Positions 1 through 23,266 of a stretch of 64,000 bases of DNA are shown here, piece by piece. Both the position numbers and the translations under genes were made by a program. Position 1 is the stretch's first letter; each line of letters begins with the position of its first letter. Location: contig OZ024741.1 in assembly GCA_964016885.1 (NCBI GenBank), positions 46,934,001-46,998,000 of the forward strand, given 5' to 3'. The notes under the pieces are model-generated. The model was given only the letters and a program-made list of their open reading frames with translations, searched no databases and was not told the DNA's origin. Source of the stretch: Eledone cirrhosa (taxonomy: Eukaryota).

Positions 1-2
1 AT

Positions 3-590
3 TTTTTTCAAATTCAAGAAAGTTCTACCTTCCCTACTCCTACAAGCATAGATTCAAGTTCTAATGATCACAATGGCCTCCTATTTTATATGGTTTCTCT
101 CTATAAAGTAGAAAACGCCGGAAGTAGCGCAGAGGTATCAGACTACAAACAAACCTTAATCCGAGGATTTAATAACGACCGAATGACACACCCGTATAAA
201 TATACTCAAGATATGATGCTAAGCGGACCATTATCTAAGATAATCAAAAACGATCAAGTGTTCCAAATCATGTCCGCGATGGACTTTTTCTTGTATGGAC
301 AGAGCGATCATGAATTGTCACTACTGCGCAGAGGAACAGTGTTAACTAGGTTTGATGGGATGAACATCCTTGAAGTTCTGGATCATTTCCGTAAGACTTC
401 AAGTTTGACTGTAGAAAATCTAATCTGCGCTATCGTGAATGAGACCGGTGCCACAGAGATGAGAAGGATTATCAAAGCCTTGAATACAGAAGCGTCTTTT
501 ACAGAAATATTTCCGTATCAGAAGTCTCTGGGATTAGTGAAGAAGTGCGTCTTTTCAGCGAGTGCCTGGCGAAAGCCAGGAGGCGCCTGA
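3..590 (+). pseudogene. Endogenous viral element: rhabdovirus nucleoprotein (N)-like fragment, open to the window start and C-terminally truncated near 565
   Basis: Frame is open from nt 3. LLFYMVSLYKV..DYKQTLIRGF..QIMSAMDFFL..HELSLLRRGTVLTRF..ETGATEMRRII..FPYQKSLGLVKKCVFSAS is colinear with recalled vesiculovirus N blocks (LPLYLLGLYRV..EYRKKLMDGL..KIVAAVDMFF..HECASFRYGTIVSRF..REVADEMVQMM..MPYLIDFGLSSKSPYSS). Confidence 0.85.
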
Positions 591-711
591 CCGAAAAGGC
601 GAATGAGAGAGTGAGAACTTAGTTTTATAGGGTTCTGACCGGAAGTTACAGAAAGGGTTCTACTTCCTGTCTAGATGGTGTTAATCTATTGGGGTTGTGA
701 GTGTCACAACA
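565..711 (-). promoter_or_regulatory. LTR-like Pol II promoter segment pointing antisense into the viral N fragment
   Basis: Minus strand begins TGTTGTGAC (711). ETS-type cores CCGGAAGT (639-646) and ACTTCCTG (662-669), TATAAAA (629-623), Inr-like TCATTC (606-601), hairpin CCTGGC-N4-GCCAGG (565-580). Confidence 0.5.
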
Positions 712-733
712 AGGGAGGCAATTCCTGCTACAT

Positions 734-3700
734 GTCCATTGTAATGCAATGAGGTGGCCAGCGGAATCTACCGGTATATGTTGCTCCAATGGAACGGTTA
801 GATTGCCTTATTTACAAGTCGGTGCCGAACCTTTGAATTCTCTGCTGCTTGGAGACCACCCTGATTCTAAACACTTTTTCAGAAATATAAGAGCCTACAA
901 TTCGGCTTTCCAAATGACAAGCTTTGGTCATACACCAATAAAAGATGGGAATTATATGCCCACATTTAAAGTGCAAGGCCAAATTTACCATCAAATAGGA
1001 TCACTTATTCCACAAGATGGCAAAGAACACAGTTTTCTCCAGATCTACTTTATGGGCAACGGACCTGAAGAAATTGCACGAAGGGCTTCAGTTGCTAAAG
1101 GAACAACACCTTCTCTTCTGCAGCCCCTTCAATATATGCTTCATTCCATAAACCCGTACATCACCATTTTCAAAACTGCTTTACAACGTAGAGATGCTAA
1201 CAACAATCAATACAAGGTTGTCATTCGAAATGACTGCGCCCCACCAGGACAGCATCAGGGTTGCTTTAATAGACCCCAAACCGATGAAGTTGCGGTGATT
1301 ATAACACGTCCTAATGAGAGCGCTTCAAACCGTGATATTGTTATTGAATGGCAGGACTCGCATCTTCAAAAAATAAATGAACTTCATCCCGCATATGATG
1401 CTCTCCAGTATCCATTGCTGTTCCCCTTTGGCGACGATGGCTACCGCATTGATTTGCAAAAGTGTAATCCTGTAAGTTGAATGCATCTTACACCAGGGAA
1501 AACCATTTCACAAATGGAATTTTATGCATTTAGACTTATGTTTCGCAAAAACGACGTCAACATTCTGCATAGAACACGGATGCTCCTCAATCAATACTGT
1601 GTAGACATATTTGCTAAGATTGACACTGAACGCCTCCAATGGATAAGACATCATCAAAAGGAACTGCGTTCAGAAGAATACGGCAATCTACGTGACGAAG
1701 TAAACCGAAATGATCAAGCTAATGCTTCGGATGTTGGGCTTTCTGTCATTCTCCCATCATCATACACTGGAGGCCCCCGTTACATGCATGAAAAAATGCA
1801 GGATGCTCTGACCTATGTCCGCCATTGTGGCCGTCCTGATCTTTTTATCACCTTTACATGCAATACAAAATGGTTTGACATCCAGTCTCATTTACTTCAT
1901 CCAGAGTGTTTCACATGAAGCTTATAAAAGTGATAGATGTTTTAAAATACGGACAACTTTTTGAACCAGTAAGGTGCTTCATGTACACAGTAGAATGGCA
2001 GAAGAGAAGACTCCCACATGCCCATATTCTCCTTTGGCTTCAAAAGAAACTTATGTCAACTGATGTTGATTCCATTATCAGTGCTGAATTGCCAAATCCC
2101 CAAGAAGACCCTTCGCTATTTCAAATCATAAAAGCCAACATGATACATGGCCCGTGTGGCCACCTAAATCCAAAATATGCATGTATGTATGGACAATAGA
2201 TGTACAAAGCGTTACCCACGTAAACTCATCAATGAAACCAAAACTGGTGATGATGGCTACCCTTCATACCGTCGCCAAGCACTGCAGGAGGGTGGACATA
2301 TGGCAAATATAACAATGCTTGGTGGTCAAGATTTCACTATTGACAACCGATGGGTTTTACCACATAACAAGGTGCTATGTAAAATGTTTTCAGCCCATAT
2401 TAACGTTGAATTCTGCAACTCCGTCAAAGCAATCCAATACATCTGCAAGTATGTCCATAAGGGAGCTGATTGAGCAGTTATTGAGTTGGCTAAAAGCGAT
2501 AACCCTGATGCTGCCACAGATGAAGTCACGTGTTTTCAAACTGGACGCTACATCTCTTCTAACGAGGGATTTGGGCACATATTCGGTTTTCCGATCCATG
2601 AACGTGAACCTCCAGTTATTCATCTCAGCATTCATTTGGAGAATGGTCAACGGGTGTATTTTAACCAAGAAAATATGCTTGACTGTGCAAGACAACCTCG
2701 AAGAACGACCCTTACCGGGTTCTTTGAACTCTGTACTTCAGACTCTTTTGCCAGAACACTTCTTTATGCGGAGTTGCCTACATTCTACACGTGGAATAAA
2801 TCTTCACGCTGTTGGCAAAGAAGAAAGCGAGGACGCATTTCACAAAGGGATGCTTTGATGCGTGAGTCTGATGCCCTCTCAAGAGTGTACACAGTTCACC
2901 CGCTCAATTCAGAATGTTTTCACCTTCGTCTTCTATTGCACGTTATCAAAGGTCCGACTTCCTTTGAAGACCTCCGTACCGTCAATGGCCATATTTGGTC
3001 AACATTTAAAGAGGCCTGCTCCAAATTAGGTCTTCTCGACAACGGTGACCACTATGACCACGCCCTCCATGAAGCATCAATGTTGCAGTCACCAATTGCT
3101 CTTCGTAAGCTTTTCGCCGTTATGCTGGTATACTGCAGTCTTGGGAATCCAGTCTTTCTGGGATAAATATCGTGACAGCATGTGCTTGGACATCCTAATG
3201 CAATCTCGCTTTGCGTCCACAGACATGAATTTACAGTTTACACATGAAATGTACAATTGCGGTCTCATATTTCTAGAAGATATACTTTTGGAAATGACCG
3301 GCCATCCCTTGAAGAACTACTATATGGAATCCCCTAAAAGAGAAAATGAGGCTGTTTGTAACCGCCACGTACTAAGGGAGACATGCTACAATGCTGCCAG
3401 GCTTCTGTCCTACATTCAAAAAAGAGAAAAACTTTTGAATTCTGAACAAGCTGATGTCTATACTTTTGTTTTGACCATGCTTGAAGACATAAACGGTAGC
3501 ATCCTCTTCCTTGATGCGCCAGGTGGCACAGGAAAGACATTTCTACTAAACCTCCTTCTTGCCAAAGTTCGCCAACATGGACAGATTGCCATTGCAATGG
3601 CATCTTCAGGAATAGCAGTAACACTGCTAGAAGGCAGCAGAACAGTCCATTCAACATTTAAGCTTCCCCTTAACATTGGTCATGTTGAAAATCCGACCAC

Positions 3701-4796
3701 TAATGTAAAGAAGAATTCTGATGAGGCTGCTGTCTTTCGAAAATGCAAAATGATTGTCTGGGATGAGGCGACAATGTCCCATAAGAATGCACTTCATGCA
3801 ATCAATGCAACGCTACAAGACCTGCGCTCCAACTCTAAACTTTTCGGTGGCGTCGTTCTGCTTCTTGCTGAGGACTTTCGTCAAACTCTTCCCATCATCC
3901 CAAAAGGTCAACCAGGTGATGAAATAGACGCTTGCATTAAACATTCTCATTTTTGGCGCTTCGTCCAGTCGAGAATGTTAACCATCAACATGCGATCAAT
4001 TCTCCACCAACAAGACGGTGACAATTACTTTGCTTCAAAGTTATTGGATGTTGGTAATGGGAACTTACCAATCGACGTAAACGATTTCGTTGACATAAGT
4101 ACCATCGGCAACTACGTCTCCAGCCCTGGGGACCTTTGCACAAAAGTTTACCCCGACCTCTCAACAAATTAAGTCAGTCATCAATGGATGTGTGAAAGGG
4201 CTGTCTTAGCTCCTACAAATGCCACCGTCCAAGCTCTTAACACATGTCTGCTTCATCAACTTCCTTCCCAAGAGCGATGTTATGCTTCGATTGATTCAAT
4301 TACGGATCCGACGCAAGTAACGTTTTACCCAACAGAGTTTTTAAACTCACAAGAACCATCGGGAATGCCACCGCATAAACTCTGCCTAAGACTTGGATGT
4401 CGCATCATACTATTAAGAAATTTGGAACCTCCTCAGCTTTGCAATGGCACATGCTTGGTTATAACGCAAATGTTGGATGACGTTCTCGAAGCTACAATCA
4501 TTACTGGAAAAGGCGCTGGTGACTCTGTTTTAATTTCCAGAGTTCCACTTATTCCAACTGACTGTGTCTTTCCGATGAAAAGAGTTCAATTCCCCATTCG
4601 ATTAAGTTTTGCGATGACCATTAACAAAGCCCAGGGGCAATCACAAAAAGTGGTTGGGCTGGACCTCAGTACCCCATGTTTTTCACACGGACAACTGTAT
4701 GTGGGATGTTCAAGAGTTGGAAACTCAGCAAGTCTCTTTTACTACGCTCCCGGAAGATTTACAAAAAATGTGGTTTACAAGGCAGCCCTCCAATAG
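734..4796 (+). pseudogene. Helitron RepHel (Zn finger, HUH/Y2 Rep, PIF1-like helicase), disrupted by stops and frameshifts
   Basis: HCNAMRWP..CCSNG, ILPSSYTGGPRYM, EWQKRRLPHAHILLW (HUH), YICKYVHKG (Y2), DAPGGTGKT (Walker A), WDEATM, FAMTINKAQGQS, FSHGQLYVGCSRV across ORFs 701-4796. Confidence 0.96.
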
Positions 4797-18515: not shown

Positions 18516-21500
18516 ATGCCCACATGGAAACGTTCAAGACTTACCTCCAAAAAAGGTACAGCTATTGCTTTGAGACAACGAATTAGGCGTTCTCAGGTAT
18601 GAGTTCATTCACAATTGATTAATCCTTTATGCAATATTCTCCCTTAATGTTAGCAAGTACTGCGTTTATCCTAACTGTCACCACTTTTAAGCAACTACAA
18701 CATTCTAATCGTAGTTATATTAAATTTATTGTCTTACCTTGATTCCCTTTTGTTCATGTTAGACTTTTCTCATTTACTATTGACACTGCCATTGGCTTAG
18801 CTAACCAGTAGAATTAATTAATTTTCTCTAGGAAACACCTGCTGAGCGCGAATCTCGACTCGCTGATAGACGTCTTTCCCGGCTGGTTGAGTCACCAACA
18901 TCACGTACGACAAGGCTTGCTGATGTTCGCCTTCATCGCCAACAAGCGCTGGCGGAGGAATCACCAACATCCCGTCAAACGAGGCTTGCTGGGGTTCGCC
19001 TTCATCGTCAACAAGCACTTGCAGAGGAGTCCACGGCAGACAGAGACAACAGGCTTGCTGCTAAGCGTTCCCGGCATACGTTAACTACTACTACCAAGAG
19101 CTCAGGCTGGGTAAAAGCAGCCTTCAGATATAACCCCTCTGAGGATTACGGACTTCTGCCTACAATTTCCATCGGTAAAATGGATAATGTCTGTACATCC
19201 TGCAACGCAATGAAGTGGCCAGGCGAGGCGCCTTCTATGTGTTGTGCAGGAGGTAAGGTGCAACTAGGAGCATTGTCTGACCCGCCATACGTTCTTCTGA
19301 ATCTACTTACAGGTGACGACACTACGGCTACAACGTTCCGCCGTAATATGTGGAAATACAACTCCTGTTTCATGATGACCTCCTTTGGTGTAGACAATAA
19401 CACCAACAACAGCGTGAACCCCAACAACAACGTTTTCACTACATTCAGACTTCAAGGCCAATGCTACCATCTCATGGGTAGTCTTCGTCCGCATCCAAAT
19501 GAAGAGCCAAAGTTTCTGCAGGTTTTCTTTTTGGGTGGAGGTGAGGCCGATTTTGACCAACGCTGCAAGTTAAACGAGGGTGTAGATAGGCGAATAATAG
19601 CAGGTCTGCAGACAATGCTCCATGTGACTCATCCCTACGTTCACAATTTCAAGTTTGCCTTGGAACAAATTGAAACCACGCCGAACATCAAGGTGATTAT
19701 AAGGGCTGACAGGCGACCAGCTGGCGAGCATGCCCGTCGTTTCAATGCACCAAATACCAATGAGGTAGCAGTGATTTTGGTTGGCGAGGAGCACGGTAAA
19801 CGCGATATTGTCCTTCAGCACCGTGACAGTCGGCTGGTGTTTGTCACAGAGACACGTAGATCGTATGATTGCCTTCAGTATCCTCTTTTATTCCCCCACG
19901 GAGAGGACGGATACAATTTTGCTCTTCGTCATGTAAATTATTCCAATGGTAGTGAATCACGGAAATCCATTTCATGTATGGACTTTTATACCTACCGCTT
20001 TATGGTAAGGAGTGGAGATTTTAATCAGCTTCTTCGATTCAGGCAGCTGACGAATCAATACATTGTGGATATGCTTGCCAAAATCGAGGCAGAACATCTG
20101 CTTTTTATTCGACTCAACCAAAAGAAACTGTGTGCGGAGGAATACATCCATTTACAGGACGCCCTGATTCGTGATGGCTATGCCGGAAACGTCGGACAAC
20201 AAGTGATCCTTCCATCAAGTTTCACAGGATCCCCTCGGTATATGCACCAAAGAACTCAGGATGCAATGTCTTATATTCGTAAGTTTGGCAGGCCTGATCT
20301 TTTCATCACTCTCACATCATCGCAATCCAAAATGAGAGGAAATTCAAAACTACCTCTTCCGGGGCCAGGTGAGTAGTGACAGGCACGACCTCATAGCCAG
20401 AGTCTTCCAGCAGAAACTCAAGAAATTGATGTGGCTACTGAAAGACGGCAAAATATTTGGTGGTCTTAATGCATGGATGTATACCGTGGAGTGGCAGAAG
20501 CGGGGACTACCACATGCTCACATCCTTATATGGTGCAAGGACAGGGTACGGCCAACGGACATGGACAACATTATTTGCACAGAACTGCCCAATCCGCAAA
20601 CCGATGTGCAATTGTTCAACACCGTGAGCAAACAATTGATGCACGGACCCTGCGGCGCCCTTAACTTTAATTCACCTTGCATAGAGAATAACAAGTGCAT
20701 TAAAATGTTTGCACGACCTTTTACACGGGAAACACGCACAGGGATCGACGGCTATCCTATCTATAGACGACGCGCACCCGCGGATGGTGGGGCTAAAGCA
20801 AAAATAAAGCTGCACGGGCAGGAGATTGTCCTCGACAACAGGTGGGTGGTACCATATAACCCTCATCTTGCCAAGATTTTTAATGCTCACATCAATGTTG
20901 AGTCATGTACGTCGGTGAAGAGCATTAAGTACATATGCAAGTACATAAACAAGGGAGGGGATATGACTGTCATTGAACTCCAAGGTGGCAGGGCACAACC
21001 TGATGAAATACAACAATATCAAATCAGAAGGTACATTTCATCCAATCAGGCGATTTGGAGGATTTTTGGTTTTGACATTCATCAGCGTTCACCAACAGTC
21101 GTAAACTTGAATATTCACTTGGAGAATGGGCAAAGAGTGTACTATACTGACGAAACCGCCAGCCGCGTTGTGGCCAACCCACCTGCAACAAAATTAACGG
21201 CTTTCTTCCAATTGTGCCAAGAAGATCCGTTTGCTAAAACGCTTCATTATGCCGACGTCCCAACCTACTACACCTGGGCACATAATAAATGGACGAGGTG
21301 CCGACAGGGAGCACGCGTTCACGTGAACGGAGAAGACGTTTTTAAAAGCGATGCCATCGGCAGGGTGTACACAGTGCATCCAAATTACCATGAGTGCTTT
21401 TATTTACGTATGTTGCTGCACAGTGTTAGGGGTCCTACTTTTCACTGAGCTACGGCGCATCAATGGCAAACTCTGCACTACGTATAGGGAGGCATGTGCC

Positions 21501-23266
21501 AAACTTGGACTCTTGGAAGATGACGGTCAATGGGATCAGACTCTAGAGGAGGCTACTGCCTTCAAAGCACCAATTCAACTGGGCCAGCTGTTTTCGATCA
21601 TGCTGATGACATGCGGTTTGAGTGACCCCTTAAAACTTTGGGAGGCACACAAAAACAGCATGGCCGAAGACTTCCTCGCCGACTTCAGCGTCAGGACCCT
21701 ACGGCTGGGTTTGAATATAATTCTGCTATCTACAACGAGGCCTTACTCGACCTAGATAAACAAGTCCAAGCAATGGAAGGTCAGGGCGTCGCTACCTTCG
21801 ATTTGCCCCAACCACAGCAAGCATCCAGTTCATTCAACATCGAGTACATACGCGAGGTTAGCTACGACCAAGTGCATTTGGCAGTTTATGTACAGCTCAA
21901 CGAGCCTCGACTTTTGTCAGACCAGAGGACTGCCTACAACATGATAATCTCCAGTATTGACTGCAAAGCGGGAGGTATTTTTTTTCTTGATGCTCCGGTG
22001 GGAACAGGCAAAACCTTCATCATCAACTTGCTTCTGGCTAAAGTTAGGCAATGCAGACAAATTGCTTTAGGAGTGGCCTCCAGTGGCATAGCGGCAACCC
22101 TGATACATGGCGGTCGTACAGCCCATTCATTATTTAGGCTACCCTTAGATATATCCAAGAGGGAAACGCCCACCTGCAGTCGCGGCTCGACAAAAGGCAA
22201 AATTCTGAACGAGTGCAACCTCATCATTTGGGATGAAGCGCCAATGAGCCATAAAGGCGCCTTCGAGGCTCTCGACCGTACCCTTCAGGATCTTAGGCAT
22301 AATACATGGCTTATGGGTGGCGTGACAGTTTTGCTTGCTGGAGATTTTCGACAGACCCTTCCTATTATTTCGAAAGGAACAAGGGCAGACGAGGTGAACG
22401 CAAGCATCAAGTGTTCCTACTTGTGGCAGAATATAAAAACGATGCATCTTACAACTAACATGAGAGTCCATCTTAGTGGTGATGAAGAGACCGCGGTGTT
22501 CTCCAGGCAACTATTGGAAATAGGCAATGGCACTATAGTTGGCGAAAATGACGGTCCTATATGTCTTCCGTTTGGGCATGTTGTACCTAAAGCCGAAAAT
22601 CTCATGTCAACAGTGTTTCCTTACCTACCCAGAAATTACACTGATCCCGATTGGCTGAAGCAGCGCGCAATCTTAGCGCCGAAGAATTTCACTGTGGATG
22701 CATTAAATTTTAGACTCCTAGAACAACTCCCTGGTGATTCCATCAGTTACAAGTCCATAGACTCTGTTCCCAACACGGACAAGGCGGTGCATTACCCTGT
22801 TGAATTTCTAAACAGCCTTACACCACAAGGACTTCCCCAGCATAACTTGCTACTTAAAAGAGGCTCTCCAGTTATGCTGTTAAGAAACTTAGACCCTCCG
22901 AAACTTTGTAACGGAACGCGGCTGACCATTAAGACCATGATATCAAAAGTCTTAGAGGCTACTGTCTTAAATGGACCAGCCAGTGGTGAGGATGTCTTCA
23001 TACCCAGAATACTGCTCATTCCATCCGATATGCCCTTTCAGTTTCGACGACTGCAATTTCCATTGAAATTAAGCTTTGCAATGAGCATTAACAAGGCGCA
23101 AGGGCAGTCATTACAGGTGGTTGGCTTAGAACTTTCTGAACCTGTTTTTTCACATGGCCAGTTGTATGTTGGATGATCAAGGGTCGGGAGTCCACAACGC
23201 CTCTTCATCCATGCTCCTGAGGGCAAGACACAAAACGTCGTCTACCATGAGGCGTTAGAGAATTAA
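18516..23266 (+). pseudogene. Helitron RepHel gene 2, two exons (18516-18596 and 18832 onward), with frameshifts and a late stop
   Basis: CTSCNAMKWP..CCAGG, ILPSSFTGSPRYM, EWQKRGLPHAHIL, YICKYINKG, DAPVGTGKT, WDEAPM, GDFRQTLP, FSHGQLYVG*SRV. Confidence 0.95.

Follow-up and report, generated by a model that had tools for sequence, protein, structure and literature searches.

A rhabdovirus nucleoprotein-like fragment lying antisense in a non-autonomous LTR element of the octopod Eledone cirrhosa

The first bases of a 64,000-base stretch of the Eledone cirrhosa genome (contig OZ024741.1, here C2, positions 46,934,001 to 46,998,000; the whole stretch is called the window, and positions given without a contig name refer to it) lie in an open frame that resembles the nucleoprotein (N) of rhabdoviruses. 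This raises the questions of whether a viral gene fragment is indeed part of the genome of this animal, by which route it could have arrived there and whether its open frame reflects youth or a retained function.

The nucleoprotein match and its place in the genome

A reading made from the letters of the window (the sequence-only reading) had described an uninterrupted frame at 3-590 on the forward strand, related to rhabdovirus N and ending at GLVKKCVFSAS, a divergent version of the RNA-binding motif. Both the open frame, with 195 codons in the window, and the motif are present. The frame extends 81 codons leftward beyond the window start, to 276 codons including that part, and it is viral up to 565 but not to its end, as its last seven codons (WRKPGGA) and the stop are encoded by an adjoining LTR and the viral part stops at 565/566; the end of the window frame reads GLVKKCVFSASAWRKPGGA. 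The rhabdovirus N-derived DNA at 1-565 (forward strand) is the right-hand part of a 913-base fragment (C2:46933653-46934565) that starts 348 bases left of the window. At this base composition, the chance of 187 open codons is about 3e-6.

The proposed HMMER-type comparison with the Pfam rhabdovirus nucleocapsid family (PF00945) bears out the resemblance, with an E-value of 5e-14 and 52.4 bits for the window frame (curated cut-off, 26 bits) and frame residues 18-187 aligned to positions 118-284 of the 410 in the profile. Sister N copies in the same genome reach up to 76.9 bits, and none of 14 control genomes was positive in the PF00945 search. All 12 PDB matches to the window frame with an E-value below 0.01 are nucleoproteins or P-N fusions (best E 1e-7), the N of VSV being aligned over its residues 126-291 (E 1e-7), and a profile built from the N copies of this genome matched each of the 12 solved rhabdovirus N sequences returned. 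A predicted model of N from an 8-row alignment reached a pLDDT of 37.8, too low for a fold search. Judged by these sequence matches, positions 3-565 are confirmed as the middle of a rhabdovirus nucleoprotein.

Basic residues are conserved in the window frame at VSV N positions 143 and 286, which we take to be RNA-binding residues; positions 146 and 155 are non-basic, and later RNA-binding residues have gone with the truncation. Extension leftward for the N start, as had been suggested, lengthened the frame, but the N-start codons of the fragment are out of frame with the rest when compared with the copy on contig C28, and the C-terminal third of N, seen in sister copies, is missing. The gene is broken at its start and truncated at its end, and the window copy is not a full-length translatable N.

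The proposal of a non-retroviral RNA-virus insertion in a host genome agrees with the position of the viral DNA among host repeats on a 416-Mb contig. The host was rightly taken for a cephalopod: its genome holds 39 haemocyanin domain matches, and one haemocyanin unit scores 650-659 bits on 4yd9_C, 6r83 and 1js8, which we take to be squid or octopus haemocyanin, against at most 504 bits on 3j32 and 460 on 8tnv, presumably of gastropods (units shown). Of the sampled words, 97-100% occur in three public runs, which come from a single sample, and none of the runs listed as holding the N stretch is RNA. Genomic reads spanning the junction near 565 had been named as a check on the claim, and this was borne out in part: in two short-read runs of the same sample one contig spans the N stretch unbroken, at a depth of 8-11 that reaches into the LTR, and ends about 28 bases into it, although the bridging contigs are 3-4 bases short of the 31-base rule and possibly come from the assembled animal itself. 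An end inside the LTR is understandable, because a contig of unique sequence is expected to break off at a repeat. Inside the N fragment, one of the two contig sets from this sample has a single-base indel relative to the assembly, either an allele or a contig error. N is absent from two reduced-representation runs of another study but for a single read (at least 99% identical, at the 5' end of the fragment) in one of them, which weakly suggests presence in other animals.

The restriction of full coverage to three public runs, all of one sample, would also suit a viral sequence of an infected specimen, or a contaminant, mis-joined into the assembly. Such an artefact is extremely improbable in view of ten N loci that each have their own stops, frameshifts or target duplications, junctions placed exactly within host repeats, contigs that continue into the LTR, the (weak) second-study read and related pieces in two other octopod genome annotations. 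Viral sequence is joined to host DNA in the germ line.

The carrier element and the route of capture

To the right of N, positions 566-732 (reverse strand) are a partial LTR, namely the outer half with a normal TG terminus, of a non-autonomous LTR element, whose partner half lies left of the window at C2:46932193-46932363, with a polypurine tract and then about 1.3 kb of non-coding interior behind it. The LTR repeat has 1406 candidates in the genome, at least 40 of them scored and many paired 1.4-1.8 kb apart. Empty elements are non-coding and have paired LTRs of about 360 bases, with a pair identity of 94-98% in the eight fetched. A primer site before one LTR matches the 3' end of this genome's tRNA-Trp genes and a polypurine tract follows the other LTR, both on the strand opposite N. 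With paired LTRs, a tRNA primer site, a polypurine tract and no coding frame, the carrier is a non-autonomous LTR retrotransposon. Along the left LTR half and the interior, the window element matches empty copies at about 89-95%; it departs from them 40 bases before the LTR and rejoins them mid-LTR, the viral fragment having replaced the inner half of an LTR and the last 40 interior bases, which include the primer site for tRNA-Trp. The junction between virus and LTR (564-579, reverse strand), as defined by comparison with an empty element and by the fold of the element-sense RNA, shows a 2-base microhomology at the foot of a short perfect LTR hairpin.

Non-coding LTR elements of 2 kb form at least two abundant families in this genome (1406 and 1704 candidates). 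In the 1406-candidate family the primer site runs into a copy of the tRNA-Trp T-loop, with a decayed second copy about 40 bases inside. A tandem cluster at C4:353.39-353.49 Mb contains about 40 matches to the tRNA-Trp 3' pattern, and three genes were confirmed in 3.5 kb.

The decayed Helitron seen next to N by the sequence-only reading is real (Rep/helicase at 733-4796, forward strand, with PF14214 and PIF1), but it is the landing site and not the carrier, being itself interrupted by the LTR end, and it does not recur as a flank at any other N locus. Neither its 5' part nor the rest of the left LTR was found in C2:46884001-46998000, which includes 50 kb leftward of the window; the left LTR half adjoins a Penelope-like element, and the window copy is without a target duplication and without a left LTR end. 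A second, less decayed Helitron lies at 18832-23173, its protein 44% identical to that of the first.

A search of the genome with the window protein gave 17 matches at nine loci, and the Pfam search added a tenth N locus on C1, older and decayed, without a match to the window protein; this fragment (C1:314565714-314566028) is of a different rhabdovirus lineage. The N loci are scattered over five chromosome-scale contigs and one small contig and, judged by their junctions, would represent about eight separate captures. By gene, the loci number 10 for N, 2 for P and 4 for L; a search of the genome for the glycoprotein G family gave no match, this being a weak search in which the controls were likewise silent. 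The layout of the window copy (LTR, polypurine tract, interior, antisense N and a half LTR joined by microhomology) recurs at C2:55.89M and C4/C5:74.85M with two other LTR families as carriers, and 4-base target duplications are present at all three loci at which both outer ends can be placed (C2:55.89M, C5:74.85M and C2:336.02M). Relative to their carriers, six captures are antisense (five N, one L), two are sense and four are not orientable. The sense captures (C2:336.02M and C5:61.19M) begin at a gene-start-like AAC motif, which resembles the gene start between N and P, and an A tract closes one of them; such a start fits an mRNA template. In the antisense capture at C2:47.05M/C219 the sequence continues beyond N, across A8-9, CT and AACTC, to a second ORF at the place expected for P (the P-position ORF). 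This ORF matched no Pfam family and no atlas cluster, and such a read-through of a gene junction fits genome-length RNA only. Contig C219, of 92 kb, may be the other haplotype, its N copy being 98.7% identical to that at C2:47.05M; on either side of the C219 copy stands a 54-base A-rich direct repeat, and this is not what an integrase leaves behind. At C28:117476000-117485100 five tandem units of 1796 bases each consist of LTR interior and antisense 5' N, four of the N copies being near-identical and the fifth differing by 2.3%. At four loci (N at C1 and three L loci) no LTR link was found within the 1.5-4.5 kb examined.

The explanation that we consider probable is that the window copy is a young, truncated N fossil, antisense in a non-autonomous LTR element, which arose by template switching of a Ty3/gypsy-type reverse transcriptase in a germ-line cell and gives no working protein. 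During minus-strand synthesis along the element RNA, the reverse transcriptase would have moved over to the negative-sense viral genome, close to the 3' end of that RNA, copied a part of N and then returned to an element RNA within its R region. The product would have had two normal LTR outer ends but no primer site and could have been integrated by an integrase supplied in trans, a mode of integration that the sister loci suggest for the window copy. With a later deletion into the Penelope-like element, the left LTR end may have been lost together with the left target copy and the 5' part of the Helitron. The sense copies would represent capture from viral mRNA, and the roughly eight captures would go back to repeated infections of the germ line by several viruses, related to each other and belonging to one lineage associated with octopods. 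Several observations weigh against this explanation: the microhomology at the junction measures 2 bases only, the two LTR halves end no more than 6 bases apart, for which a chance deletion is a poor explanation, the antisense majority (6 of 8) is contrary to the polarity in Aedes, sister copies sharing junctions carry too many synonymous changes for plain neutral decay, and the four loci mentioned above are without an LTR link.

The Penelope-like element at the left LTR half, the abundance of LINE-type RT ORFs nearby and the A-rich direct repeat around the C219 copy could instead speak for viral cDNA made by a LINE or Penelope reverse transcriptase or through break repair, which then entered the LTR element by DNA recombination or insertion. 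This other route appears quite unlikely, as the window copy has neither a poly-A tail nor a duplication around its viral part, the primer site and inner LTR half are replaced cleanly, and three LTR families share the same layout with the target duplications outside the LTRs.

Age, selection and possible use

The lack of stops next to a heavily decayed Helitron had suggested either a recent insertion or selection to the sequence-only reading. The first part stands: the LTR halves of the window element differ at 2 of 161 bases and by one 9-base gap, and because they differ so little, the insertion is young relative to most empty copies. The second part finds no support, since under neutral decay at 0.6-1.2% change, as given by the LTR halves, a stop-free frame of 268 codons is expected 65-81% of the time and thus needs no selection to explain it. 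Selection on the window frame is also unsupported because the copy is truncated, has its start out of frame and lies antisense to its carrier.

In the sister copies that share junctions, synonymous and non-synonymous differences number 17:14 for C4/C5, 9:6 for C28 and 6:9 for C2/C219 (not significant alone). Pooled, 32 of 61 are of synonymous type against about 26% expected (p 1e-5, at a transition bias of 3), and a stricter whole-codon count gives 15:16 for the C4/C5 pair. CpG decay was rejected as the cause of this excess, as it concerns only 6 of 31, 1 of 16 and 6 of 20 differences, and so was a transition bias of up to 6, which fails for two of the three pairs. Purifying selection in its plain form is a poor fit; frameshifting indels (2 and 3) occur in two of the three pairs, and the total N divergence of the C4/C5 and C28 pairs (2.7% and 2.3%) equals that of the non-viral flank (2.6% and 2.4%). 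Patchwise replacement from sister viral strains, or conversion among copies, is a candidate cause that seems to fit better; the differences among the C28 copies are clustered. The window copy is without a close sister, and the synonymous excess does not bear on it directly.

This excess, together with the 268 open codons in the window copy and 320-393 in three others, could be read as domestication, with purifying selection on a truncated N that interferes with virus assembly. Such a role is very unlikely, however, for a copy whose start is in another frame, whose C-terminal third is missing and which runs antisense to the LTR, all the more as the absence of stops is expected at this age and as the sister pairs contain frameshifts and diverge in N as much as in the flank, not less.

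Compatible with capture by template switching, although somewhat unlikely, is the view that the insertions are kept and used, in that transcripts from the LTR promoter into antisense N might be cut to piRNAs against rhabdoviruses as in Aedes. N begins, in antisense, about 165 bases inside the LTR end and behind a TATA-like motif, the readable captures are antisense in the majority given above, N was captured far oftener than other genes, one locus is a five-copy tandem array, and for Aedes an antiviral role has been shown for one flavivirus insert (PMC7522710, in part). Then again, a bias towards N is also expected from the 3'-to-5' transcription gradient of rhabdoviruses (PMC13249128), and loci spread over five chromosome-scale contigs and a small one form no single cluster. 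In its widest form, the octopod genome would be a heritable archive of one unsampled rhabdovirus lineage that combines antisense N capture, patch overwriting by later infections and LTR-driven antisense piRNAs. We regard this as unlikely; overwriting by sister strains would explain the clustered synonymous excess in junction-sharing copies, and the archive, if real, would amount to an EVE-based antiviral memory in a mollusc. Whether such inserts give rise to antiviral piRNAs in molluscs can now be tested directly.

Source viruses and known systems

The window copy is 60-66% identical in DNA to the other N copies, and against eight of them pS is 0.83-0.97 (saturated) while pN is 0.22-0.26. Saturated synonymous sites beside a low pN indicate that the divergence arose in viruses before capture, and together with the low DNA identity they indicate that the source virus of the window copy differs from that of every other copy; the N captures go back to five or more source lineages, between which synonymous sites are saturated. 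In a full HMMER scan, 250 sequences matched the N profile, the top four with 290, 187, 164 and 106 bits and all others with at most 76.5. These four are A0A0L8FVJ3 of Octopus bimaculoides, GAB1603531.1 and GAB1610042.1 of Argonauta hians and one Logan protein. The phylogeny that had been proposed as a check (33 rows, 25 of them chosen from the top of 150 listed) places four copies from this genome with the same four relatives in one clade, with a support of 100/100 and a stem of 1.3 changes per site; these relatives make an octopod host likely. The two overlapping Octopus bimaculoides and Argonauta hians sequences are 39% and 50% identical to the window frame, whereas VSV and the other non-octopod N tested are only 21-31% identical to octopod-clade N, the highest values being 25-31%. 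The earlier statement that no cephalopod example is known was too strong, since automatic annotation of Octopus bimaculoides already names such a protein, although all three octopus and argonaut entries are automatic annotations, known from proteins without flanks. Other searches reached little: a word-index search with one N copy found no relative among 2433 candidates, a profile search with N found one among 4825, and an IMG/VR scan with one N copy gave two pattern matches and no relative, the remaining relatives being reached by the full HMMER scan only.

L fragments occur at four loci, none of them physically linked to N. The largest (C3:130159960-130164890, about 4.9 kb) has stops, frameshifts and internally repeated pieces and covers, in pieces, much of VSV L 23-1721, with the RdRp, capping, connector and methyltransferase domains in order; it is joined to a Ty3/gypsy pol of opposite orientation, in which a frame of 901 codons is still open. 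Of 221 relatives, the best 120 share 45-52% identity with the core of the L fragment, and the named matches among these 120 are rhabdoviruses or unclassified mononegaviruses, so by sequence the fragment groups with the Rhabdoviridae. L and N presumably come from one virus lineage. In L trees, whose row sets hold no other rhabdovirus subfamily and whose root is not fixed, the fragment is the longest branch, without a supported sister in either the FastTree tree of 120 rows or the quick IQ-TREE tree of 39, and it is not monophyletic with any named Alpharhabdovirinae genus. It scores 460 bits on VSV L against 364 on the second rhabdovirus L structure, which we take to be that of rabies.

Further polymerase pieces were seen elsewhere. 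C23:16220972-16222982 is a far more distant mononegavirus polymerase fragment, 22% identical to the best rhabdovirus L fetched and probably of another family. Scrambled L pieces lie at C27:16994000-16997800 and C3:37502164-37502840, those on C27 being 70-89% identical in protein to the C3 L fragment and rearranged in both directions. Near an L fragment, open frames of 147, 173 and 379 codons (L065:1678-2588, L066:8785-9921) without a Pfam match might be further viral pieces.

Taken together, a deep-branching rhabdovirus lineage would have infected the octopod germ line many times, recently in this animal's lineage and also in those of Octopus bimaculoides and Argonauta. The N, the gene junction, the P-position ORF and much of L provide handles for finding living viruses in cephalopod RNA, with the caution that rhabdovirus reads in cephalopod transcriptomes may stem from the host genome. 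The junctions would be an unusually clear record of the capture of RNA-virus sequence by LTR reverse transcription, beyond insects and mammals.

Mollusc rhabdoviruses are rare in print, and two gastropod ones have been placed basal to lyssaviruses (PMC11141596, in part), whereas the L fragment described here scores higher on VSV L. In both L trees, Killamcar virus 1, from freshwater mussels, stands apart from the fragment. The ICTV 2026 profile names molluscs under Gammarhabdovirinae only (PMC13249128), the main text of a 2025 survey of RdRp-like entries is without octopus or cephalopods (PMC12548735), and Rey-Campos et al. 2023, by its title, deals with rhabdoviruses in cephalopod metatranscriptomes. 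The literature searched contains no account of cephalopod rhabdovirus EVEs, which supplementary survey tables or Rey-Campos et al. 2023 may cover. The closest known system is that of the Rhabdoviridae EVEs of Aedes, which, in the sections of the sources concerned, are mostly N-derived, tied to Ty3/gypsy LTR elements and explained by template switching (10.1101/127498, PMC7522710), a copy-choice model for the capture of viral inserts having been described there (10.1101/127498, in part). In Aedes cells, 543 of 614 LTRs share polarity with the nearest viral insert (10.1101/127498, in part), while here 6 of 8 readable captures are antisense. The carrier here is also a 2-kb non-coding element, the loci are scattered and the animal is a mollusc, a cephalopod. 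The association of rhabdovirus N inserts with Ty3/gypsy elements is of a known kind, and it is the host class that is new.
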